A stretch of DNA of 61,875 nucleotides, the filler included. It is 9 parts of 9 records of this genome, joined end to end, with 100 filler letters (N's around TTAATTAATTAA, not from the genome) between each part and the next. Parts side by side here need not be neighbours in the genome. Positions count along the whole stretch, not along the records: positions 1 to 9,747 come from SRR31147125_68484; 8 more parts are not named here. One strand, written 5' to 3'. A program made the translations under genes and the position numbers. Below the pieces are notes generated by a model. The model did no database searches. It had not been told where the DNA came from and saw only the letters and a program-made list of their open reading frames with translations. Of the stretch, positions 1 to 55,906 are shown piece by piece (the first letter of the stretch is position 1; each line of letters opens with the position of its first letter).

Positions 1-1846
1 CCCTCCAACCCCTTCCACGGGGTTTCCGACAGCCACATGGGCGGTCATTTTGCCGTGGAGATGAAGTATGCCGGTTACGATGCCATCATCATCCAGGGGA
101 AGGCTTCCTACCCCGTCTGGCTGCGGATCGAAGATCAGGAGGTCAGTCTTGAGGACGCCTCTGCCTACTGGGGCAAGGGAACCTTTGCCACCATCGCCGG
201 AATTACAGACGAACTGGATGGTGAAGGGCAGGTGGCCGCCATCGGTCAGGCCGGTGAAAACCAGGTCAACCTTTCAGTCATCCGGACCGGGGTCAGCCAC
301 TCGGCCGGCGGACACGGCGGTATCATGGGAGCCAAGAACCTCAAGGCCGTCGGAATCCGGGGCACCGGTTCTGTAAAGATTGCCGGCAACAACCTCGAAT
401 GGCATGAACTCAACAAGAGTGCTTTCGCCGTTGTCGGAGCCAACAACCAGCATGTTGTTCCCTCCACCCCCCAGCCCTGGGCCGAGTATCACTCCAAGGG
501 GAGCCGCTGGACCGCCCAGAAGGGTCTTAAATGGGAATCGGCCGAGTATCCCATCGAAACCGGTGAAATCCCACCGGGGAATCCCAATACCATCGGCTAC
601 CGGACCATGAAGGCGATCAAGGACCTCGGTAAGGCCGGTCCCCAGTACACCGTTCGTATGGGCGGTTGTGCCTCCTGTCCCGTCCGCTGTCACTCCCACC
701 TGAAGGTGCCCGAGCTGGAACAGTACGGGGTCAGCCCCCATGTTTCCAACACCTGTATGGGGTTTTTCTCTCCCTGGATGGTCATGGGCAAGTACAATGT
801 CGAAGGGAAGACCCCGGATGAAGCGACGGTTATCGGACGTTCCATGGGTGCCCAGATGGCCGACGACTACGGTGTCTGGTGTAACTATGGTCAGCTCGGT
901 CGTGATTTCAACTGGATCTGGTCTCACGGTCTTTTTGAGAATATCCTCTCCAAAGAGGAGTTCGATTCCATCCCCTGGGATAAGCATGTTGCAGGAGATG
1001 TCAGTTTCTTCCAGGATTTCTACCGGCGAATTGCCATGAAAGAGGGAGAGCTCTCCCGACTTGGTGAAGGCGCCTGGTACATCGACCAGGCCTGGAATCT
1101 GGGAGACGATTACTGGACAGACAAGAAAAACAAACTCTGGACCAGGGTCGGTTTTCCTGTTCACCACTCCAGTGAATCCGGTGGTCTGGTCGGTGCGATC
1201 ATCTCTACCCAGTTCAACCGGGACGCCCAGTGCCACACCCACCAGAACCTCCTTCAGCGGGCTGCCTAATGAGCTTGTCAAAGAGATTGGAGCGGAACAC
1301 TGGGGCGAAGGGGCGATTGAGGCTCCGGCTCACTACACACCGGCGAATGAAGCAAAGGCGAAGTTCACAAAGTGGAGCATCGTCCGGAACGTTCTCCATG
1401 ACTCCCTGACCCTCTGCAACTGGATGTGGCCCATGACCACCTCTCCCCTCAAAGAGAAGGGATACCGGGGTGATACGGGGCTCGAGGCAAAGTTCTTCTC
1501 CATGGCCACCGGCTACAATGTCCAGGAGGCGACCCTTGATGAGCACGCCGAACGGATTTTCACCCTCCACAGGGCGATGATGGCCCGGTCGATGAACTCG
1601 AAAGACCTGAGAAACGATCACGATCAGCTGACCGGATGGCAGTTTACGATGGATCCCGACAAGAAACCCTTTGACGCCGGAACTATCAAGCTCGATCCCG
1701 ATGACTTCCAGAACGGACTGACCCTCTTTTACAGAGAGATGGGCTGGGATGAAGTGACGGGTGTTCCCACCCGGGCAACCCTGGAGCATCTGAAACTCGC
1801 CGATGTCGCCGATGAGCTCGAGAGACTGGGACTCTTAACCGCATAA
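1..1846 (+). CDS. ydhV: Aldehyde:ferredoxin oxidoreductase, YdhV-like (5'-truncated; apparent frameshift near 1258)
   Basis: Open from base 1. AOR motifs SHMGGHFAVEMKYAGYDAIII, GGIMGAKNLKAVG, GCASCPVRCH, DSLTLCNW and GWDEVTGVPTRATLEHL. ORFs 37-1269 and 1061-1846 join with one frame change. Confidence 0.85.
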
Positions 1847-1849
1847 CCT

Positions 1850-2407
1850 ATGATTGAATACTGCAAGGCCGTCCTTATTGATGAAATAACCAAAGCCGGT
1901 AAGGACGGCCGGCTTGTAAAAGAGGACTACCTGCTCGCCCGCGGGCGGGAAGTTCTGGACACTATAGAAGACCTCCCCGATGCGGCGGAAACCCTGGTGG
2001 ATGAACTCCCCGGGCTCGCCGATGAGGACGGGATCCGATCTGTGACCGGGAAAAAGGGAATGTACTTCTACTCCTCTGAGCATATTGCCGACAATTACGC
2101 CGCGATGAAGGTGAAAATCGACGAGGAGGATTTTCTCGCCCTTGTGGCCCAGCAGGTACGTCATGAATCAAAGATATACCCCCGGCCGACGATCGTCGAT
2201 CAGTTTGCCGCCCACCCTTACAGCATCGGAAGAGAGGAGTTGGCCTTTATCCTGGAGACCATTGAGAGAGACCCGGAGTTCAGTGACATTCGAAAGATAT
2301 CCGCCTCCAACGGAGACCTCTACCTCTATTCGAAAAACTTTCTGGACGACGGTATCGCCGCGTACCAGGCCGAATGGGAATCGGTCGACAGTGTGGAGAA
2401 TCAATGA
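1850..2407 (+). CDS. YdhW-like accessory protein of the YdhV oxidoreductase system
   Basis: Directly follows ydhV. Motifs YFYSSEHIADNYA, VRHESKIYPRPT and NGDLYLYS resemble YdhW. Confidence 0.6.
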   Translation: MIEYCKAVLIDEITKAGKDGRLVKEDYLLARGREVLDTIEDLPDAAETLVDELPGLADEDGIRSVTGKKGMYFYSSEHIADNYAAMKVKIDEEDFLALVAQQVRHESKIYPRPTIVDQFAAHPYSIGREELAFILETIERDPEFSDIRKISASNGDLYLYSKNFLDDGIAAYQAEWESVDSVENQ

Positions 2408-3084
2408 TGACCTGTACTGCAGCCATGCCGCTGGTGGAAGAGGAAGAGGTGAGTCTCTTTGTAAACCACCACCCGGTAAAGAGATTTCTCTGTACTCCCG
2501 AGGCTCTGGGCGAACTGGCCGCCGGTCATCTCCTTCTCAAGGAGGGGCTGAAAAGCCCGGCTTCCCTTACCATTGAATCGATTGATGAGGAGAGGCTTGA
2601 GATCCATGCGACTCTCAGGCCGGAGTGGCCCGGAGATCCTCTGCCGTGCCCGGGGAAAGAGAGAGTCATCAGCCGTTTGGACCTCCCGGATACAGATGTT
2701 CTTCGTAATTTGGCGGTGCTGATGTTTGAACGGGCGGTGAAGTATAAAACCCATCGGGGTATTCACTGCGGCGCCTTAAGCGATGGCAGGGAGATTACCT
2801 CATTCTATGAGGATGTGGGGCGTCATAACGTCCTGGATAAAGTCATCGGCGATGCCTTTTTGAAAGGGACTCCACTGGATTCTTTGATATACTTTACCTC
2901 GGGGCGGGTCTCTTCGACAATTGCAGAGAAGGCGGCGGCCTGCGGGATTCCCTGTATCGTTGCCCGCAGCCTGCCCACCACCAGGGCCCTGGCTATTGCC
3001 GAGGAGAATGGTCTGGGTATTATCGGTCGGATAGAGTCGGCTTCACCGCTGATCTATCGTCTGCCCGGGAAGGATAGGAAATGA
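2404..3084 (+). CDS. fdhD: Formate dehydrogenase accessory sulfurtransferase FdhD
   Basis: CTPEAL, THRGIHCGAL, EDVGRHNVLDKVIG and TSGRVSS motifs. ATG overlaps the upstream stop. Confidence 0.9.
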   Translation: MMTCTAAMPLVEEEEVSLFVNHHPVKRFLCTPEALGELAAGHLLLKEGLKSPASLTIESIDEERLEIHATLRPEWPGDPLPCPGKERVISRLDLPDTDVLRNLAVLMFERAVKYKTHRGIHCGALSDGREITSFYEDVGRHNVLDKVIGDAFLKGTPLDSLIYFTSGRVSSTIAEKAAACGIPCIVARSLPTTRALAIAEENGLGIIGRIESASPLIYRLPGKDRK

Positions 3085-3848
3085 GTAGAAAAAACAGGGT
3101 GGAGGAGAAGCCTTTGAAGACCTCTCCCGTCCGTGAGCATCTGAAAGCCTTGAGGAATGTAATCTTTGTCTCCCTGATTTCTCTGATCGTCACCTCTGTG
3201 GTGAGCAGCTTTTTCTTCGAGGAGATCGTCCAGTTTCTCTTCGAACCCTTTACCCGGATCGAGGGGCTGAAGACCGAAGATACTCTTTTCGCCAATATGG
3301 TTTTCGAAGGATTTCTGACCAAACTCAAGATTTCGATCATGAGCGGGCTCATCGTTTCCGCCCCGGTGATCACCTTTATGATCATCCGGTTTGTCCTGCC
3401 GGCCCTGACCGGGAAGGAGCGGAGGGTCTTGTTCCTCACTTTGATTGTCAGTTCCATCCTGCTGCTGGTCGGCTTCTACTACGGTTACTATTACATACTG
3501 CCGATAACCATTGAGTTTTTTACAAACAATGATTTTTTACCGACCAATGTGACCTTCCTCCTCAGCTACCAGAAAAATATCCTCTACATATTTCGGTTTA
3601 TATTGATGAGTATGCTCAGTTTTCTTTTTCCGGTTGTTCTTGAGGTGTTGATGGTTCTGAATGTGGTCGGGCGAAAAACCATTTTCCGTTCCAGCCGGTT
3701 TGTGATCATTCTGATATTTGTCCTGTCGGCCTTTATAACGCCGCCGGATATGATCTCCCAGTGCATTATCGCAGCCCCCTTGATCGGATTGTATTTTTTA
3801 GCGATATTGGTGGCAAAAATATTCCGCTTCGGTGAGGAGGAGATATGA
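3081..3848 (+). CDS. tatC: Twin-arginine translocase subunit TatC
   Basis: EHLKALR, FVLPALTGKER and AFITPPDMISQ motifs, with about six hydrophobic helices. Confidence 0.92.
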   Translation: MSRKNRVEEKPLKTSPVREHLKALRNVIFVSLISLIVTSVVSSFFFEEIVQFLFEPFTRIEGLKTEDTLFANMVFEGFLTKLKISIMSGLIVSAPVITFMIIRFVLPALTGKERRVLFLTLIVSSILLLVGFYYGYYYILPITIEFFTNNDFLPTNVTFLLSYQKNILYIFRFILMSMLSFLFPVVLEVLMVLNVVGRKTIFRSSRFVIILIFVLSAFITPPDMISQCIIAAPLIGLYFLAILVAKIFRFGEEEI

Positions 3849-4183
3849 GTACACCGGGACTCGGTTTTCAGGAGTTCCTCCTGATCGCTGTTCTCCTTCT
3901 GGTTTTTGTCAGGCCCGATGAGGTTCCTGTGATTTTCAGGAAAGTCGGGAAAGTCTGGGCAAAGATTTACTACTATTACACAATGGCTAAACGGGAACTC
4001 CATTCGATGGAGAAGGAAATCGGTATCGAGGATGAAATGAAGGAGATCCGCAAGATCAATGCAAGAATGAACAGCGAGATCGCAAACTTTGATAAGGTTT
4101 TTACTGATCAAGACGGGCCTCCCCAGAAGCCTTCGGCTGATCAGAATAAAATTATAGACGAAACAAATTCTAAGGAGATATAA
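3845..4183 (+). CDS. tatB: Twin-arginine translocase subunit TatB-like
   Basis: GLGFQEFLLIAVLLLVFVRPDEVP N-terminal TM helix plus hinge. Lies between tatC and tatA. Confidence 0.75.
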   Translation: MSTPGLGFQEFLLIAVLLLVFVRPDEVPVIFRKVGKVWAKIYYYYTMAKRELHSMEKEIGIEDEMKEIRKINARMNSEIANFDKVFTDQDGPPQKPSADQNKIIDETNSKEI

Positions 4184-4185
4184 CT

Positions 4186-4353
4186 ATGATGGGTTCAACT
4201 GAGGTTCTGGTCATCGGGGGCGTTGTCGTCCTCCTTTTCGGCGCCAGTGCCATACCGAAATTTGCAAAGTCCCTGGGTAAGGCGAAAAAGGAGTTCAAGG
4301 AAGGGCTCGCCGAGGGTGAAGATGACTTAAACGAAGAAAAGGGTTCAAAGTAG
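4186..4353 (+). CDS. tatA: Twin-arginine translocase subunit TatA (55 aa, not in ORF track)
   Basis: Manual translation gives MMGSTEVLVIGGVVVLLFGASAIPKFAKSLGKAKKEFKEG.... RBS AAGGAG lies upstream. Confidence 0.88.
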   Translation: MMGSTEVLVIGGVVVLLFGASAIPKFAKSLGKAKKEFKEGLAEGEDDLNEEKGSK

Positions 4354-4467
4354 ACCAATTAACTATTATTCCATAAATCTCTATAATAGAATCAGGACTT
4401 TCCGTTGCGGGAGGTGCCTGTACCTGCGGAGAGAGGTCCCGGGTAAATATACAATAAGGAAGGCACA

Positions 4468-6663
4468 ATGAAGCGAATTGTGATTTTGGGCGGAGGATAT
4501 GCCGGTGTTCATGCGGCAAAGATTCTCCATAAGGCCTTTAAAAAAGATGAGGGGGTTTCGGTCACCCTGATCGACAAGAATCCGTATCACACTCTGATGA
4601 CGGAACTCCATGAGGTGGCAGGTAACCGGGTTGAAAATGATTCTGTCCGTGTCAGCTACGACAGGATCTTCGCCAATAAAACTGTCGATGTGGTCCTGGA
4701 TAAAATTACCGGTCTTGATCCGGTGAAGCAGGAATTGAAATCGGAAACCGAAACCTATCCCTACGATTACCTGATTATGGGTGTCGGTGCGGAGCCTACG
4801 GACTTCGGTATCCCCGGTGTCAAAGAGCACTCCCTTCCCCTCTGGAGCTATGAACACGCCCTTCAGATCAAGGAACACATCATTGAAAAATTTACCGCCG
4901 CATCCCGTGAAAGGGATGAGGAAAAACGGCGGAAGATGCTGACCTTCGTTGTGGCCGGTGCCGGTTTTACGGGGATCGAGATGGTAGGAGAGCTGATTGA
5001 ATGGCTTCCGATCCTCTGTGAAGATTACGGGATCAACAAGGACGAGTATTCTCTGATCAATGTGGAAGGACTCTGCCATATTCTGAATATGATCCCCGAA
5101 GGACCCCGAAAAAAAGCCTACCGGTATATGGAGAGGAATGGGGTCAAGTTTATCCTTAACTCCTTTATAACCGAAGCCCGGGAGGGGTCCTTCACCCTCA
5201 AGGACGGGACGATCGTGGAATGTGACACCCTCATCTGGACCTGCGGTGTCAAGGGAAGCGGTCAGGGACGTGCGTGGGGGCTTACTGTTGCTCATGTGGA
5301 CAGGCTCAAAGTCGATGATCAGATGAGAACCCCTGAATACAAGAACGTTTTCATCGTCGGCGACAGTCAGTGGTTTATGGAAGATGATAACCCCATACCC
5401 CAGATCGTAGAGGCTGCGGAGCAGACTGCGGCTGTGGCGGCAAAAAACATCATCCACGAGATAACCGGAAAGGGCAAACCTGTCTCTTTCAAATCCAACT
5501 TCCACGGTTTCATGGTCTCCATCGGCGGCCGTTATGGCGTCAGCCACACCATGGGTATTTCCATGAGCTGGATCTTTGCCATGGGTGTGAAGCACCTTAT
5601 CAACTGTGTTTACCTCCATTCAATCTGCGGGCTGAACGGCTGGGCCAAATACCTGCGGCATGAAATTTTTTCCATTAAGAATAAACGCTCCCTGTTCGGC
5701 GGTCTGATTGCCGGAACGGTTCAGGGGCTCTGGGCTGTTCCCTTGCGGATGTGGCTGGGAGTTATGTGGTTCTTCGAAGGTCTGAACAAGGTCGGCGAAG
5801 GCTGGCTGAACCGGGCCAAGGGCTCCAGCTCCTCCTGGATGTACAGCTCCGGAGTGATTCAGAAAGGCCTCCCCGGATACGGTGAAGAAGCTGCTGCCGA
5901 TGCTGTAAGTGCGGCCAGCGGAGCCGAAGCCGCCGTTGAGGCAGCACCCGCTGCCGCCGATGCCGTAAGCGCCGCCAGCGGCGCCGCCGGAGATGCGGTT
6001 GCGGCAACCGCCCAGGCCGGGTACACTGCCGCCGACGCGGTCACTGCAGCCAGCGGTGTGGCCGAGGCCGTCGTTGCGGCTCCCGCTGCGATTGATGCTG
6101 TCAGCGCTTCCAGCGGAGTTGCGGAACCGGCCGCTCAGGCCGTGGCAGAGACCGCCTACGCCGCTGCCGATGCGGTCAGTGCTGCCAGTGCCGCAGGAAC
6201 CGAGGCCGTTGCCCATGCCGATGCCTGGGGACCCGTCTGGGATCTGACGAAGCCTGTTCTCTCCTGGACCAACCCTGTGGTTACCTGGTTCCGGGAAACC
6301 TTTATGGACGGCCTGGCCGCCCATATCGATTTCGGATTTTTCCAGGGAATGGTCGTCGCCGTGGAGATACTCATCGGTCTGGCCCTGCTGGGAGGTCTTT
6401 TTACCTTCCCCGCCGCCGGTGTTTCTATCATCATGTGTTTTGTCTTCATCCTTTCCGGCCTGTTCAGCTGGTCTCAGGTCTGGTTTATCTTTGCCGCTTT
6501 TCTAATCCTCGGCGGAACCGGACGGACTCTGGGTCTTGATTACTGGGTTATGCCCTGGCTGAAGAAGGGCTGGAACCGGACGGGTCTGGCCAAGTCCACC
6601 TACCTCTACACCGGAGAACCCCGGTTTGGGAAGGGCGCCCGAAAATACGGTAAAAAGAGGTAG
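4468..6663 (+). CDS. ndh2: Type II NADH dehydrogenase fused to a C-terminal DoxX-like membrane domain (Listeria EET Ndh2-type) with an Ala-rich repeat insert
   Basis: Two Rossmann motifs (ILGGGYAG, VAGAGFTGIE). C-terminal TM domain WAVPLRMWLGVMWFFEGLNK...GRTLGLDYWVMP. Confidence 0.85.
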   Translation: MKRIVILGGGYAGVHAAKILHKAFKKDEGVSVTLIDKNPYHTLMTELHEVAGNRVENDSVRVSYDRIFANKTVDVVLDKITGLDPVKQELKSETETYPYDYLIMGVGAEPTDFGIPGVKEHSLPLWSYEHALQIKEHIIEKFTAASRERDEEKRRKMLTFVVAGAGFTGIEMVGELIEWLPILCEDYGINKDEYSLINVEGLCHILNMIPEGPRKKAYRYMERNGVKFILNSFITEAREGSFTLKDGTIVECDTLIWTCGVKGSGQGRAWGLTVAHVDRLKVDDQMRTPEYKNVFIVGDSQWFMEDDNPIPQIVEAAEQTAAVAAKNIIHEITGKGKPVSFKSNFHGFMVSIGGRYGVSHTMGISMSWIFAMGVKHLINCVYLHSICGLNGWAKYLRHEIFSIKNKRSLFGGLIAGTVQGLWAVPLRMWLGVMWFFEGLNKVGEGWLNRAKGSSSSWMYSSGVIQKGLPGYGEEAAADAVSAASGAEAAVEAAPAAADAVSAASGAAGDAVAATAQAGYTAADAVTAASGVAEAVVAAPAAIDAVSASSGVAEPAAQAVAETAYAAADAVSAASAAGTEAVAHADAWGPVWDLTKPVLSWTNPVVTWFRETFMDGLAAHIDFGFFQGMVVAVEILIGLALLGGLFTFPAAGVSIIMCFVFILSGLFSWSQVWFIFAAFLILGGTGRTLGLDYWVMPWLKKGWNRTGLAKSTYLYTGEPRFGKGARKYGKKR
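5899..6189 (+). repeat. Intragenic protein repeat: five D-A-V-[ST]-A-[AS]-S motifs plus one degenerate copy
   Basis: Asp codons at 5899, 5959, 6034, 6094 and 6169 (spacing 20/25/20/25 aa). Degenerate DAVAATA at 5992. Confidence 0.9.
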
Positions 6664-6669
6664 GAACGT

Positions 6670-7635
6670 TTGAAACTCCATCCATTTTGGGATGATTTCC
6701 CCTCCATGAGGGGGCCCCTGATGAAGGTCGCCGGCTTCATCCAGACCGTTCTGGATGAAAGCCCCGGCTTTCTTAAAAAAGACCTGGATCCTCTTTTCAG
6801 TTCTCCCGGAAAGATGCTGCGGCCGGCATTTACCCTGCTGGCCGCTACCTCTGGTGATGATGAGTCACCCTATCTTTATCAGACTGCAGCCGCCATTGAA
6901 CTGCTTCATACGGCTACTCTGGTTCATGATGATGTTATCGACAAGGCTGTCGAACGCCGGGGCGTACCCACGATCAACTCCCAGGCAGGGGTGAAGAGGG
7001 CTGTTCTGGCGGGAGATTTTCTTCTGCTTATGGCCCTCGAGCTTGCTTCGGCGGCCCATGAAAAACGGTTGATTGATGCAATGAACAGTGCGGCCCGTAA
7101 AATCTGTCTGGGCGAGATTGAACAGGATGGAAAGAAGGGCGGTTTCCTTATCACCAGGGAGGCCTACTTCGACAGAATCAATGGTAAGACGGCGGAGCTC
7201 TTCGCCCTGGCGGCCAAGGCCGGGGCTCTCCTGGGAGGCTCTTCGGATAAAGCGGCCGAAGCCATGTACAGGGTCGGCCAGAATTTCGGTCTGGCCTTCC
7301 AGATTGAGGATGATATTCTGGACTACTCCGGGAAGGCCGGTGATATGGGAAAGGCTTCGGGTAAAGACCTGAAGGAAGGGATCCCGACCCTGCCGCTGAT
7401 CCTGGCGGCGGAGGACGAGACCTCGGGAATTGCCCGCCTCTGCCGATCTCCTCTGAGGCCTCTCTACAACCGGACAATACGGCGCCGGATTGTCTCCGGC
7501 GGATTTACTGACGCCGCCGGAAAAATCGGTGAAGCCTACCGGAATGAAAGCCTCTCGCTTCTGTCAGAGTCGAAAGCCGAGGGTGGTGATCTTTTTGCCG
7601 GTATCATTACCCGTCTGAAATCCCGTGACCGCTAA
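6670..7635 (+). CDS. Polyprenyl diphosphate synthase (HepT/DmkB-like)
   Basis: GKMLRP, HTATLVHDDVID...RRG, KTAELF and AFQIEDDILD motifs. Confidence 0.92.
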   Translation: MKLHPFWDDFPSMRGPLMKVAGFIQTVLDESPGFLKKDLDPLFSSPGKMLRPAFTLLAATSGDDESPYLYQTAAAIELLHTATLVHDDVIDKAVERRGVPTINSQAGVKRAVLAGDFLLLMALELASAAHEKRLIDAMNSAARKICLGEIEQDGKKGGFLITREAYFDRINGKTAELFALAAKAGALLGGSSDKAAEAMYRVGQNFGLAFQIEDDILDYSGKAGDMGKASGKDLKEGIPTLPLILAAEDETSGIARLCRSPLRPLYNRTIRRRIVSGGFTDAAGKIGEAYRNESLSLLSESKAEGGDLFAGIITRLKSRDR

Positions 7636-7659
7636 TCTTACCCTGATACTTGCATTTTA

Positions 7660-7678
7660 CCGGGGTCTTTGACCCCGG
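7660..7678. terminator. GC-rich hairpin after the ndh2-synthase pair, possible terminator
   Basis: CCGGGGTC-TTT-GACCCCGG forms a perfect 8-bp stem. The U-tract is weak. Confidence 0.45.
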
Positions 7679-7796
7679 CACCCCCTCCTTTGCTTCCAAA
7701 GTAAATAAAAACAGATAAAAAAGTATTGATCCCTCTAAATATGACCTTATAATTAAAGTTAACGTGTATTTCAAATATAAATCATCGGAGATTGAT

Positions 7797-9747
7797 ATGA
7801 AATTAAGAACAATTTTGCTGTCCGCCTTTCTAGGGATGGCTGCCATTACTCTGGCTATTGGATTAACAGCCTTTCTGATGAGTAGTGTCACTCTCAAAGC
7901 TAAAGGGGAGGTTATCGCTCTGGGCGATGTGGAGGCCGATCTGCTGAATGCCGTTTCGGCCCATCACAAGTGGAAAGGGGATCTGGAAGGAGCCTTCATT
8001 GAGAATACGGAAAACATCGCAGTTCAGTTTGACGGCCATGCCTGCGGATTCGGCACCTGGTTCTATGAGGGCGGCCTGGACGAGCTGAGGGCCCTCTCTC
8101 CTGATGCCGCCGATATGATTTCCAGACTTGAATCGGACCACCTCAGCCTTCATACAACGGCTCAAAGGATGGATGAATCCTGGAGCATGATCCATCCGGG
8201 GCTGGGAGAGGAACTCTTCCGCCGTCTGAGCGATCATAATTCCTGGGCTACGACTCTGATGGAAGATATTCTGCAGGGACAGAGTTCGGATGTTGAGACC
8301 GATCACACCCGATGCGGCTTCGGCGAGTTCCTCAGCAGTGACTGGAACCGGGAACTCGAGGAGAGCTGGCCTGAGTACAGAAGTCTGATGACGCCGATCC
8401 GGGAGCACCATGAAAATCTTCATAAGGCTGTTATCGAAATCAACGCTGTTGAAGACCCCGGTGAAAAATACCGGATTTTCAACCTGACCGTTGCTCCGGA
8501 ACTGGAATATATTGGAGAGAGTTTTCATGAAATTATCAGTCTGGAAGAGAAACTTGTTCAGGGACAGGCGGTGGCAAAGAGTATTTTCAATACCGAAACG
8601 GTGCAGTACCTTCACAACGTTGAATCCGGTATCAATGGTACTATCGGACTTCTGGGAGAAGAGAAGACGGCTCTGGAGGCCCGCTCCGACGAGCTGAACA
8701 CGATTCAGAACTTCGTTATCTGGATTGGAATCGTGGTCGGGGTTTTGATTGAGATTCTTATCGCCATTCTTATCACCCGTTCGATCTCCCGGAAACTTGG
8801 TGGAGAACCGGCAGAGATCTCTGTTATTGCCGAGAATATCGCCAAAGGTAATCTGGACCTGGAATTTGATGAGAGAGAGGCTCTCGGCGTCTTCGAATCG
8901 ATGAAAGAGATGACCAACAGTCTGACGGAGATTGTCAGTTCCGTACTCTCCGGCAGTGAGCAGATTGCGACCGCCAGTGAGCAGATTGCCTCGGGAAACC
9001 AGGACCTCTCCAACAGGACGGAGCAGCAGGCTTCAGCCCTGGAGGAAACTTCAGCGGCGATTGAAGAGATGAACGCTTCTATCAAATCAAATGCCGATAA
9101 TACACAGACCGCCGATCAGCTTTCCAGGGAGGCGGTTAACAAAACCGAAGAGGGATCGGATACTATCCGGGAGATGGTTACCTCGATGGATGAGATAAAT
9201 ATATCCAGTAACCGGATAAGCGATATTATTGAGGTTATTACCAATATCGCCTTCCAGACTAATCTTCTGGCTTTAAACGCTTCTATTGAGGCCGCCCGGG
9301 CAGGAGAGCAGGGGAAGGGATTTGCTGTGGTCGCCGTGGAGGTGCGAAAACTGGCGAAGCGTTCGGATAAGGCCGCCAATGAGATCACCGAGATTATCAA
9401 GAACTCCAGCCAGAAGGTCACCGAAGGGGTGGATATTGCCAACAAAGCCGGGGTGGTTCTGAATGAAATCAATGATGCGGTCAGAAAAGTAACGGCTTTG
9501 GTTGGAGAGATTTCCGCCGCCTCTCAGGAACAGCTTTCCAGTGCTTCGGAAATCGATAAAACCCTGGCGTCTCTGGATGAGAACACCCAGAAAAATGCCG
9601 CTCTTGTCGAGGAAGCTGCCTCTTCCACCGAAGAGCTGTCGGCTCAGGCCCAGGAACTTAACTCGAGTATGCGGTTCTTCAAGATCAAGTCCTCTTCCGC
9701 TGGTTTTAAGAATCAGGAGGTAAAACTGCCTTCCGAAAAACACCCCC
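7797..9747 (+). CDS. Methyl-accepting chemotaxis protein with two CZB domains (3'-truncated)
   Basis: TM1, then HHKW...HACGFGTW...HLSLH and HNSW...HTRCGFGEF...HENLH, then TM2 and the signalling domain [30 protein letters not shown]. Confidence 0.92.
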
Positions 9748-9847
9748 NNNNNNNNNNNNNNNNNNNNNNNNNNNNNNNNNNNNNNNNNNNNTTAATTAAT
9801 TAANNNNNNNNNNNNNNNNNNNNNNNNNNNNNNNNNNNNNNNNNNNN
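9748..9847. other. Artificial contig linker (first of eight; others at 17755-17854, 23787-23886, 29329-29428, 35699-35798, 43068-43167, 49221-49320, 55807-55906)
   Basis: 100-nt N runs with a central TTAATTAATTAA (stops in all six frames). GC and gene content change at each linker. Confidence 0.98.
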
Positions 9848-11691: not shown

Positions 11692-12624
11692 CAAGAAAAT
11701 ACTCCATTGTCTTTATGGGAACACCGGATTTTTCCGTTCCTCCCTGAAAGCTCTGGCTCGACAGCATCATATTTCATTGGTGCTGACCCAGCCGGATCGC
11801 CGCAAGGGGCGGGGACGAAAACTGATGCCCCCGCCGGTCAAAGAGGCGGCTTTGGAGCTGGGCCTCGATGTGCTTCAACCGGAGAGCATGAAAGGCGGTG
11901 AGATCCGGGAAAAATTGGCAGCCCTGAAGCCCGACTTTTTCGTGGTCGTGGCCTACGGCCATAAGCTGAATCGGGAGATCCTGGATATTCCGACCATCTA
12001 CCCCATCAACATCCATGCTTCCCTGCTGCCGGCCTATCGGGGCTCTTCCCCCATTCAAGCGGCCATCATGAATATGGACAAGGAATCCGGCATCACCACC
12101 ATGATCATGGATACCGACCTGGACACCGGTGATATGCTACTGAAAGCCGCCACCCCCATAGCCGCCGACGAAACCGGACAAACCCTCCACGACCGCCTCT
12201 CGAAAATGGGCGCGACGCTCATCATGGAAACCCTTGACGGTATTGCAGAGGGCCGCATTGTACCGGAACCCCAGGATCACTCCAAAGCCACCTATGCCCC
12301 CATGTTGAAAAAAATGACGGCCGGATCGACTGGTGCAGGGAACCTGAAGAAATTTCAGCTCAAGTTCGTGCCATGACCCCATGGCCCGGTGCGTTCACCT
12401 TTATCAACGATAAACGGATCAAGGTTGTGGAAGTCCGTCCCATGGATCATCAACCAGACGTTCCTGCCGGAACGGTATTTGATTGCACCTGCGACGAAAT
12501 TCATGTGGCTGCCGGCAACAGGTCTCTGGCCATCCTTCAGCTTCAAGGCGCCTCGGGAAAATGCCTTTGCTCCGAAGAGTATCTTCGGGGGAACCGACTG
12601 GATACCGGAGAATGTTTTTTATAA
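11688..12624 (+). CDS. fmt: Methionyl-tRNA formyltransferase (apparent frameshifts near 11742 and 12315)
   Basis: [36 protein letters not shown] and MTPWPGA motifs across three frames. Lies between def and rsmB. Confidence 0.92.
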
Positions 12625-17754: not shown

Positions 17755-17854
17755 NNNNNNNNNNNNNNNNNNNNNNNNNNNNNNNNNNNNNNNNNNNNTT
17801 AATTAATTAANNNNNNNNNNNNNNNNNNNNNNNNNNNNNNNNNNNNNNNNNNNN

Positions 17855-23786: not shown

Positions 23787-23886
23787 NNNNNNNNNNNNNN
23801 NNNNNNNNNNNNNNNNNNNNNNNNNNNNNNTTAATTAATTAANNNNNNNNNNNNNNNNNNNNNNNNNNNNNNNNNNNNNNNNNNNN

Positions 23887-29328: not shown

Positions 29329-29612
29329 NNNNNNNNNNNNNNNNNNNNNNNNNNNNNNNNNNNNNNNNNNNNTTAATTAATTAANNNNNNNNNNNNNNNN
29401 NNNNNNNNNNNNNNNNNNNNNNNNNNNNGAAGTTACAAACTTCGATTTTTTTTCGAAGTATCTTTCATCCACCACAACATTCAAAAGCAATAAAATGATT
29501 TTTGAATATCTAAGTATGTTTATGATTTATAGAGATATAATAGTGTGACAATTAAATATAATTGTGTTTATTTGTCAGATAAAAGCTATGTTAGGCTAAA
29601 AAAACTAAAATC

Positions 29613-35698: not shown

Positions 35699-35798
35699 NN
35701 NNNNNNNNNNNNNNNNNNNNNNNNNNNNNNNNNNNNNNNNNNTTAATTAATTAANNNNNNNNNNNNNNNNNNNNNNNNNNNNNNNNNNNNNNNNNNNN

Positions 35799-42965: not shown

Positions 42966-43327
42966 GAGAATTTATAAGATTAGAGAAACTTTAAATTAGA
43001 AAAACAGTCTAAAAAATAGCTTATTTAAATCAGATTGTTTTTCTAAACAAAGTTGCAAAGAAACGCTNNNNNNNNNNNNNNNNNNNNNNNNNNNNNNNNN
43101 NNNNNNNNNNNTTAATTAATTAANNNNNNNNNNNNNNNNNNNNNNNNNNNNNNNNNNNNNNNNNNNNTTTTTCAAAAGCGGGTAAGTTATATTTTAGTGA
43201 ACGCCCCTATACCTCGATCTTCAACAGTCCCGTAGTTTGAAATGAGTAAAGTTATTTAAACCGATTCCTAAATCGAGACGTCTCCATTTTTTGAACAAGA
43301 CCGTTTGTCGGCAGAGAGGGCCATGAA

Positions 43328-49162: not shown

Positions 49163-49320
49163 AATCATTTTCAGACAAAAGCACCAAAACGTTTATATGA
49201 AAGTCTGCGTAAACCGCAGANNNNNNNNNNNNNNNNNNNNNNNNNNNNNNNNNNNNNNNNNNNNTTAATTAATTAANNNNNNNNNNNNNNNNNNNNNNNN
49301 NNNNNNNNNNNNNNNNNNNN

Positions 49321-55806: not shown

Positions 55807-55906
55807 NNNNNNNNNNNNNNNNNNNNNNNNNNNNNNNNNNNNNNNNNNNNTTAATTAATTAANNNNNNNNNNNNNNNNNNNNNNNNNNNNNNNNNNNNNN
55901 NNNNNN

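Follow-up and report, generated by a model that had tools for sequence, protein, structure and literature searches.

The stretch of DNA analysed here (the window; 61,875 bases) carries on its plus strand an ndh2-type gene whose product is predicted to bear an array of flavin attachment sites outside the cytoplasm. This gene (P0001; 4468..6663, of which 4468-6660 is coding) encodes a protein of 731 amino acids that joins a type 2 NADH dehydrogenase (NDH-2) to a DoxX/DoxD-like membrane domain. Five copies of the heptad DAV[ST]A[AS]S, in the register of the site at which ApbE-type flavin transferases attach flavin mononucleotide (FMN), lie in the loop that connects transmembrane helices 1 and 2 (TM1 and TM2) of this domain. 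The sequences of the protein and its homologues indicate that the heptad is a real motif, kept in this register by selection. The arrangement is best explained if ApbE flavinylates the serines of the loop, a reading that we hold to be on balance probable and in which the topology of the loop, the attachment of FMN and the path of the electrons are all predicted.

The heptads lie in an Ala-rich, acidic insert of 115 residues (residues 471-585; 5878..6222), which consists of two units of 45 residues and a partial third. Motif 1 (DAVSAAS, residues 478-484; 5899..5919), with Ser484 as its predicted FMN acceptor, is followed by motif 2 (DAVSAAS, residues 498-504; 5959..5979), motif 3 (DAVTAAS, residues 523-529; 6034..6054), motif 4 (DAVSASS, residues 543-549; 6094..6114) and motif 5 (DAVSAAS, residues 568-574; 6169..6189), all read from the plus strand. 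Counting the acceptor as position 0, motif 4 has Ser for Ala at -1 and is the furthest from the ApbE consensus, D-x-x-[S/T]-G-A-[S/T] (PMC12052999). The starts of the heptads are spaced by 20, 25, 20 and 25 residues. An earlier note on this DNA had described five heptads at this alternating spacing within a 45-residue higher-order repeat, and translation and comparison of the units showed every detail of that description to be correct. The units at residues 478-522 and 523-567 are identical at 28 of 45 residues and at 86 of 135 bases. Tandem Repeats Finder reported no DNA-level array over the heptads in 5700-6500, where its sole row was a 26-base hexamer run (6200-6225) inside the insert and past the last motif; thus, the heptad repeat is visible at the peptide level only. 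Among the 70 codon pairs compared between the five heptads, 35 differences are synonymous and 8 are non-synonymous. This synonymous excess and the absence of a DNA array imply that the peptide was kept while the DNA drifted. In shuffles of the 115-residue insert or of the 181-residue loop, the pattern D..[ST]A[AS]S occurred on average 0.014-0.021 times and at most twice, and none of 20,000 shuffles reached five.

The motif recurs throughout the family of this protein. A search with the C-terminal region returned 531 proteins at E<=1e-3, and all of the named proteins among the best 120 of these come from spirochaetes, while an exhaustive HMMER search returned 767 representatives at E<=1e-30, many of which are of two-domain length. 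With the loop delimited by conserved anchors, 105 of 121 spirochaete homologues could be parsed, and the expected number of sites was taken from shuffling each loop. The pattern [DE]xx[ST][GAS]A[ST] is present in the loop of 96 of these 105 homologues, with 1-7 copies each (one copy in 31 proteins, two in 21, three in 19, four in 14, five in 6, six in 4, seven in 1 and none in 9). In total, 247 sites were seen compared to 4.4 expected, and outside the loop there is 1 in 57,259 amino acids. When sites were picked by the four residues [ST][GAS]A[ST] only, position -6 was Asp in 61% compared to a background of 5.8%, and Asp or Glu in 83% compared to 10.2%, with Asp at about 0% at -5, -7 and -8. 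This family-wide Asp at -6, together with the codon differences and the shuffles described above, supports the claim of the earlier note that the Asp-Ala-Val-Ser/Thr core has been kept by selection.

Position -2 of the spirochaete sites is Ala in 92%, and in 106 parsed loops from Clostridia it is Gly in 50%, Ser in 30% and Ala in 20%, with [ST]GA[ST] present in 45 of the 106 and DAVTNAT in many further Clostridia loops outside that count. Gly forms are also found in spirochaete loci L059, L023 and L075, and in L059 DAVSGAS is the sole site of a 69-residue loop. The corresponding sites of the TM1-TM2 loop are QTAATSGASQ in the Ndh2 protein of Listeria (L081, 6992-8878) and EQVTTGASAA in that of Enterococcus gilvus (L082, 6992-8944). 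These loops answer the question of whether orthologues have a single [ST]GA[ST]-like site in the same loop: those of Listeria, Enterococcus and many Clostridia do. Because these Bacillota encode PplA as well, the proposal that a built-in site is an innovation that replaces PplA does not hold. By contrast, the description of the window motif as a non-canonical Gly-to-Ala form stands in part, in that this form is special, spirochaete-wide and amplified to five copies here, whereas the built-in site itself is shared with Bacillota. The arrays of different homologues have periods of 11, 14, 18, 22, 25 and 20/25 residues, which implies repeated expansion in copy number, and these expansions look independent of one another. 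A second loop repeat, DDLFG[DS]F, is present in two or three copies beside Ser-Ala-Ala-Ser heptads in some Treponema-type Ndh2 proteins (L031, Breznakiella homolactica, and L016).

These data bear on an alternative explanation, in which the insert serves only as an acidic, Ala-rich spacer of low complexity that determines how long or how flexible the loop is, and the heptads are remnants of a recent internal duplication. The insert contains 43 Ala, 15 Asp or Glu and no Lys or Arg among its 115 residues. In keeping with a spacer, the length of the loop among homologues varies from 65 to 189 residues, AlphaFold confidence is low throughout the insert (pLDDT, its per-residue score, below 50-60 over residues 476-585), and nine of the 105 parsed spirochaete loops have no site. 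Moreover, the 45-residue units share 62% of their residues, which implies that the heptad array did arise by duplication. However, the excess of sites in the loops was counted against shuffles of the same composition, the heptad was kept while the spacers and codons around it diverged, and the same heptad occurs in arrays of other periods in other lineages, and singly in Bacillota. We consider it very unlikely that the insert is a spacer of this kind.

Assignment of the protein to the NDH-2 class rests on its first 401 residues (4468..5670), which form the catalytic domain and include a C-terminal amphipathic helix at residues 368-401. Pyr_redox_2 of Pfam matches residues 3-319 (E 2e-35), and sequence matches to PDB entries 4nwz, 5na1 and 9pxk span residues 3-390 (phmmer E 5e-56 for 4nwz). 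The AlphaFold model of the 731-residue protein has a mean pLDDT of 87.4 and a predicted TM-score (pTM) of 0.79, with a pLDDT of >95 for the NDH-2 domain, and it superposes on the NDH-2 of Caldalkalibacillus (4nwz) with a Foldseek TMt of 0.95 and a root-mean-square deviation of 1.6. The features of the class are all there, namely a domain of two Rossmann folds, two GxGxxG motifs (the dinucleotide-binding motifs GGGYAG and GAGFTG) and a C-terminal amphipathic helix for membrane anchoring.

Residues 420-688 of the model form four helices with a long loop between the first and the second. TM1 (residues 420-443; 5725..5796) contains the columns R427, G431, W434 and K441, which are invariant in an alignment of 134 sequences. 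The TM1-TM2 loop (residues 444-621; 5797..6330) has conserved flanks at residues 444-470 and 586-621, where pLDDT is about 91-96, and the variable insert between them. TM2-TM4 (residues 622-688; 6331..6531) correspond to AlphaFold helices at residues 622-642, 646-662 and 668-681, with a pLDDT of 90-97, and are followed by a basic tail (residues 689-731; 6532..6660) with 11 Lys or Arg compared to 2 Asp or Glu. Three Lys or Arg residues lie just N-terminal to TM1, and the loop has 5 Lys or Arg compared to 20 Asp or Glu. NADH is the substrate of the NDH-2 domain, which must therefore be cytoplasmic. A cytoplasmic NDH-2 domain, a single helix before the loop, three helices after it and charges that follow the positive-inside rule together suggest a topology with the N terminus inside, the loop outside and the C-terminal tail in the cytoplasm. 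Thus, the helix count of the model and the positive-inside charges point to an extracytoplasmic TM1-TM2 loop, as the proposal of the earlier note requires.

A relationship of the membrane domain to the DoxX and DoxD families is suggested by its homologues. The matches of the window protein itself to these Pfam families (DoxX, E 0.37; DoxD, E 0.48) are not significant; of 53 homologues scanned, 37 match DoxX and/or DoxD at E<=1e-3, the Listeria Ndh2 among them. In the ESM Atlas, the clusters closest to the membrane domain carry a DoxX label (score 0.84), which we treat as a lead only. Foldseek gave 0 matches for the C-terminal membrane domain among solved PDB structures at E<=0.001, and a PDB sequence search matched only the NDH-2 part.

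The C-terminal membrane domain also classes the protein with the Ndh2 of flavin-based extracellular electron transfer (EET, or FLEET). Loci from Listeria and Enterococcus were obtained by tblastn against PLSDB. In the Listeria monocytogenes record NZ_LR134400.1, the order is fmnA, a FAD:protein FMN transferase, pplA, a 'FAD-dependent oxidoreductase' of 628 residues, eetA, eetB and a polyprenyl synthetase, and the EET locus of E. gilvus is equivalent. For genes of this locus we use Ndh2, DmkA and DmkB, which we take to be the names given by Light et al. 2018. Two PLSDB 'plasmids' filed under Listeria, NZ_CP030101.1 (2.9 Mb) and NZ_LR134400.1 (0.59 Mb), contain ribosomal protein genes and the chromosomal EET locus and thus are chromosome sequence misfiled as plasmid. 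By BLASTP, the window Ndh2 is 46% identical to the 628-residue Listeria oxidoreductase over 443 residues through TM1, and 37% identical over 109 residues for TM2-TM4 (E 2e-17). The Pfam and Foldseek matches and this homology of the C-terminal domain to a protein encoded between pplA and eetA uphold the classification of the window protein as an EET-type Ndh2.

Directly downstream of ndh2, and separated from its stop codon by 7 bases, is a gene with a TTG start (P0002; 6670..7635, plus strand) for a long-chain polyprenyl diphosphate synthase of 321 residues in the DmkB position, which is probably translationally coupled to ndh2. Pfam polyprenyl_synt matches at E 5e-60, and among NCBIfam models heptaprenyl diphosphate synthase component II scores best (E 5e-49, below cut-off), with no equivalog model reaching its cut-off. 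The protein contains the aspartate-rich motifs HDDVID and EDDILD and is 38% identical over 248 residues (E 2e-56) to the Listeria synthase encoded downstream of eetB. With the polyprenyl_synt domain, two DDxxD motifs and a position next to an EET ndh2, this synthase is the DmkB-like partner that had been proposed.

We examined gene context in a scan of one genome per species, which gave 211 loci; all counts below refer to the best 80 of these, whose 1,042 open reading frames (ORFs) were clustered, with annotation of the recurrent clusters. Names among the 80 loci are spirochaete in 77 and Bacillota in two, which accords with the earlier suggestion of a spirochaete-like organism. The spirochaetes include Oceanispirochaeta, Treponema, Breznakiella, Gracilinema, Salinispira, Sphaerochaeta and Pleomorphochaeta, and the closest locus is from an Oceanispirochaeta metagenome-assembled genome, with an Ndh2 61% identical to that of the window over 728 residues. 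Polyprenyl synthase is directly 3' of ndh2 in 68 of the 80 loci, as in the window. ApbE (PF02424, E 8e-91) is encoded within 10 kb in 19 loci and is the divergent neighbour of ndh2 in 17; the N termini of the ApbE proteins encoded in related loci carry a signal or a lipobox. The other recurrent products are a PplA-like lipoprotein with a lipobox (26 loci; NCBIfam PplA model NF041941, E 3e-19, below cut-off), a NusG_II protein of the EetA family (14 loci), a membrane protein in the EetB position with no significant Pfam or NCBIfam match (19 loci) and a MenA-type UbiA prenyltransferase (6 loci). Because many loci lie on short contigs, absences in this set mean little. Ndh2 itself was counted in 70 of the 80, which is too low, since greedy ORF picking under-counts it; in L013, a 731-residue ORF of seemingly the same length as the window protein was rejected as a spurious wrong-frame ORF in high-GC DNA.

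Where the genes are found together, they form a conserved block of PplA-like protein, NusG_II protein, one or two copies of the EetB-position protein, ApbE, Ndh2 and polyprenyl synthase. This FLEET-like block was seen, at about 4.5-11.8 kb of the loci, in Sphaerochaetaceae-type spirochaetes (L037, L043, L051, L055, L058, L061, L068, L079 and similar loci). A multihaem cytochrome gene with ResB and CcsA genes lies a few genes downstream in L047, L052, L053, L061, L076 and L079. The PplA-like ORFs of L021-L080 (e.g., L043, 4665-5957) have a C-terminal FMN site, HTDDI[SA]G[AV][TS]IH, and many of these spirochaete sites depart from the textbook motif at other positions, with Ala at -3 and Val at -1 (DDIAGVS). 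ApbE is abundant in spirochaete records among the best 120 of 6410 matches, and comparison of these 120 with the close Ndh2 homologues showed no overlap and is uninformative. The mean number of sites per loop is 1.19 in the 21 loci with PplA or ApbE nearby, 1.59 in 17 loci that lack them although each flank spans 5 kb or more, and 2.38 in 16 short-flank loci. A greater number of loop sites where PplA and ApbE are absent is a weak trend, uncorrected for kinship and with nine loci unparsed, and was not used as evidence.

The gene context also bears on the possibility that the window protein serves in respiration of the usual kind, as an NDH-2 with an accessory membrane anchor of DoxX type that feeds menaquinone for conventional anaerobic respiration without any extracytosolic flavin electron transfer. 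Its contig has only ndh2 and the synthase gene, flanked by tatA/tatC and a chemoreceptor gene, the window holds no EET accessory genes, and the closest loci (L001-L036) mostly contain Ndh2, the synthase and MntP alone. Nevertheless, the Listeria EET locus has the same pair of genes and an Ndh2 with the same two domains, the full accessory set adjoins ndh2 in Sphaerochaetaceae and Bacillota relatives, and the closest locus of all, L001, has EetB-position and NusG_II genes just downstream. A purely respiratory role would, moreover, leave the loop motif unexplained, and we judge it highly improbable.

The remaining alternative accepts selection on the heptads but not their flavinylation: the heptads would be a peptide element for docking of a periplasmic partner (a PplA-like protein, EetA, or ApbE with the loop as a pseudo-substrate), for non-covalent contact with flavin or quinone, or for O-glycosylation or phosphorylation. 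It shares much of its evidence with the points that weigh against flavinylation. Conservation is strong and position-specific without a folded FMN-binding domain; the AlphaFold model has no FMN-binding fold around the heptads, where the pLDDT of the insert is mostly <60, and the known natural substrates keep their flavin in a folded domain. The canonical D-x-x-[S/T]-G-A-[S/T] is departed from by Ala at -2 in all five heptads and by Ser at -1 in motif 4, while the other positions fit, and Ala replaces the canonical Gly across the spirochaete family as given above. Position -6 of the spirochaete sites is Glu in 21% and Ala in 13%, although Asp is described as strictly conserved in PMC12052999, and Sphaerochaeta loops bear ETVASASQ-type repeats that fit the ApbE consensus poorly. 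Gly at -2 is kept by the PplA-like proteins encoded beside spirochaete ApbE genes, which therefore give no direct sign that these transferases prefer Ala. Against flavinylation itself, nine of the 105 loops are site-less, a literature search found no published observation of FMN attached to this or any Ndh2, and homologues of apbE, pplA, eetA, eetB and ubiA/dmkA are absent from the 62-kb window (53 ORFs scanned against Pfam; 0 tblastn hits for any cluster member).

Yet the register of the heptads is exactly that of an ApbE site, with Asp at -6, a small residue at -2, Ala at -1 and Ser or Thr at 0; in orthologues, a canonical SGAS, TGAS or SGAT stands at this position instead; the conserved neighbour gene encodes the flavin transferase itself; and the 80 loci have no recurrent gene for a glycosyltransferase or a kinase. 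A selected element that carries no covalent flavin is an unlikely, but by no means negligible, explanation, and flavinylation by ApbE is the reading that we develop here.

If the loop serines are flavinylated, the system might work as follows. The cytoplasmic NDH-2 domain would oxidise NADH and reduce a demethylmenaquinone-type quinone, whose side chain would be made by the adjoining polyprenyl synthase. The fused DoxX/DoxD-like four-helix domain would lie in the inner membrane and present its long acidic loop to the periplasm, where an ApbE/Ftp flavin transferase would esterify FMN to the last Ser of each DAV[ST]A[AS]S heptad. Up to five tethered FMN per enzyme could then take electrons from quinol where the DoxX-like domain faces outward, and pass them to periplasmic acceptors, which might be PplA-like lipoproteins, free flavins or reductases. 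The earlier note had called the array a 'wire', which is too strong a word given the low pLDDT of the insert and the lack of an FMN-binding fold around the sites; a flexible arm with several flavins would fit the model better than a fixed chain. More tentatively, and as a possibility that we would put somewhat short of even, ApbE may act, so far unnoticed, on the loop of the DoxX-like domain across the whole EET Ndh2 family, including the Listeria and Enterococcus proteins. In that case electrons from the quinone would meet their first covalent flavin on Ndh2 itself, and in spirochaetes the site would have been retuned from Gly to Ala and repeatedly amplified, to as many as seven copies and to five in the window protein.

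The window consists of nine contigs joined by N44-TTAATTAATTAA-N44 spacers (9748-9847, 17755-17854, 23787-23886, 29329-29428, 35699-35798, 43068-43167, 49221-49320 and 55807-55906). Thus, the genuine neighbourhood of ndh2 is the first piece only (1-9747, 9.7 kb), which ends 3.1 kb downstream of ndh2. Its genes are those for an aldehyde:ferredoxin oxidoreductase, FdhD, TatC, a small ORF in the TatA position without a Pfam match, the ndh2-synthase pair and a chemoreceptor. The last of these (7764-9747) encodes a methyl-accepting chemotaxis protein with a zinc-binding CZB domain, is directly 3' of the polyprenyl synthase gene and reaches the end of the contig. The aldehyde:ferredoxin oxidoreductase gene (1-1846) lies in two frames (1-1269 and 1061-1846), each of which matches AFOR_C, and this split is a frameshift or an assembly error. 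The methionyl-tRNA formyltransferase gene (11777-12624) is apparently in two ORFs (11777-12376 and 12373-12624), with an N terminus that begins at profile position 33, and is probably another case of a frameshift or a start problem. The contig at 49321-55806 carries phage-like genes for an Enc34-type single-stranded DNA-binding protein, a family A DNA polymerase and DUF7768. The GC content of the window ranges from 31% to 57%, at ~47-57% in the first two pieces and the last and 30-39% over 18-43 kb and 52-56 kb, and the pieces may not all be from one organism.

FLEET Ndh2 and flavinylation by ApbE are established, whereas a candidate substrate of this class, the replacement of Gly by Ala and the amplification in tandem were not known before. 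A full-text literature search, which did not extend to the primary Listeria EET papers, found no published report of flavinylation of Ndh2 or of this loop motif. Neither is mentioned in the relevant sections of PMC8238504, PMC11334425, PMC9888254, PMC9882099, PMC8837199 and PMC7074142, and the main-text sections of PMC8238504 and PMC11334425 contain 0 mentions of Ndh2 as a substrate or of spirochaetes. The literature search likewise found no published mention of the [ST]GA[ST] loop site in the Ndh2 of Listeria or Enterococcus, and no paper on a FLEET-type pathway in Spirochaetota, where the per-genome cluster list of PMC8238504 was outside the search. Models of FLEET leave open the electron route from the quinone pool to PplA or free flavins, and EetA and EetB are invoked for it without a mechanism (PMC9888254). 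A covalent flavin on an outward loop of Ndh2, if present, would supply this missing step between quinone and PplA and would explain why this NDH-2 bears a DoxX-like domain. It would also mean that ApbE acts on bare heptads arrayed in the loop of a membrane protein as well as on folded FMN-binding domains, and a tethered poly-FMN arm without a domain of its own on a membrane enzyme would be a structurally new type of substrate for flavinylation. That Ala is tolerated in nature at the 'Gly' position would, if confirmed, be of use in the engineering of flavin tags. In addition, the gene context places a FLEET-type pathway in the diderm Spirochaetota, including the conserved PplA/EetA/EetB/ApbE/Ndh2/synthase block of Sphaerochaetaceae.

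Compared to known systems, the window protein is closest in plan to the Listeria Ndh2, with which it shares an NDH-2 fused to a four-helix domain, a synthase gene nearby and a site of the form Ser/Thr-small-Ala-Ser/Thr in the TM1-TM2 loop. The Listeria protein differs in having 628 residues and one TSGAS with no Asp at -6, compared to 731 residues and five DAV[ST]A[AS]S in a 115-residue insert. The Listeria locus also has pplA, eetA, eetB and fmnB adjoining, none of which was seen in the window. Since the host appears to be a diderm spirochaete, the loop would face the periplasm and not the cell wall as in Listeria. Listeria DmkB, annotated as 'polyprenyl synthetase family protein', resembles the window synthase in its polyprenyl_synt domain, its 38% identity, both aspartate-rich motifs and its encoding with ndh2; however, eetA and eetB lie between ndh2 and the synthase gene in Listeria, whereas the two genes directly adjoin in the window. 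With the DoxX/DoxD families (PF07681, PF04173) the membrane domain shares four helices, and it is unlike them in being fused to an NDH-2, interrupted by a long loop and without a significant Pfam match of its own.

Meheust et al. (PMC8238504) recognised an EET system by the presence, within a flavinylation-associated cluster, of an NADH dehydrogenase that has a transmembrane helix, and their summary table gives an EET total of 553 clusters in 547 genomes. By this operational definition, clusters of the present kind have already been counted, and the enzyme itself was not treated as a substrate. In spirochaetes, a periplasmic flavin transferase and protein flavinylation are known from Treponema pallidum (PMC4436053). 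Seven residues suffice as a 'flavin-tag', including in loops, and in one model protein a Gly-to-Ala change at -2 left about 50% flavinylation, while Asp-to-Ala changes had minor effects (PMC12052999). The window heptads resemble the substrates of ApbE/FmnB/Ftp (NqrC, RnfG, PplA and the 'flavin-tag') in Asp at -6, Ser or Thr at -3, Ala at -1 and Ser or Thr at 0, in their predicted extracytosolic location and in the linkage to apbE in relatives. They differ in Ala at -2, in the absence of an FMN_bind, NqrB/RnfD, DUF2271 or DUF3570 fold and in being several in tandem within a single loop of a polytopic membrane enzyme. Multi-flavinylated proteins likewise have several predicted sites in one extracytosolic polypeptide, for which electron transfer over longer distances has been proposed (Meheust et al. 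2021, PMC8238504; Huang et al. 2024, PMC11334425). Those proteins, however, are strings of 2 to 13 folded FMN-bind domains, mostly soluble or wall-bound and Gram-positive, whereas the window Ndh2 carries bare heptads 20-25 residues apart within a membrane enzyme.

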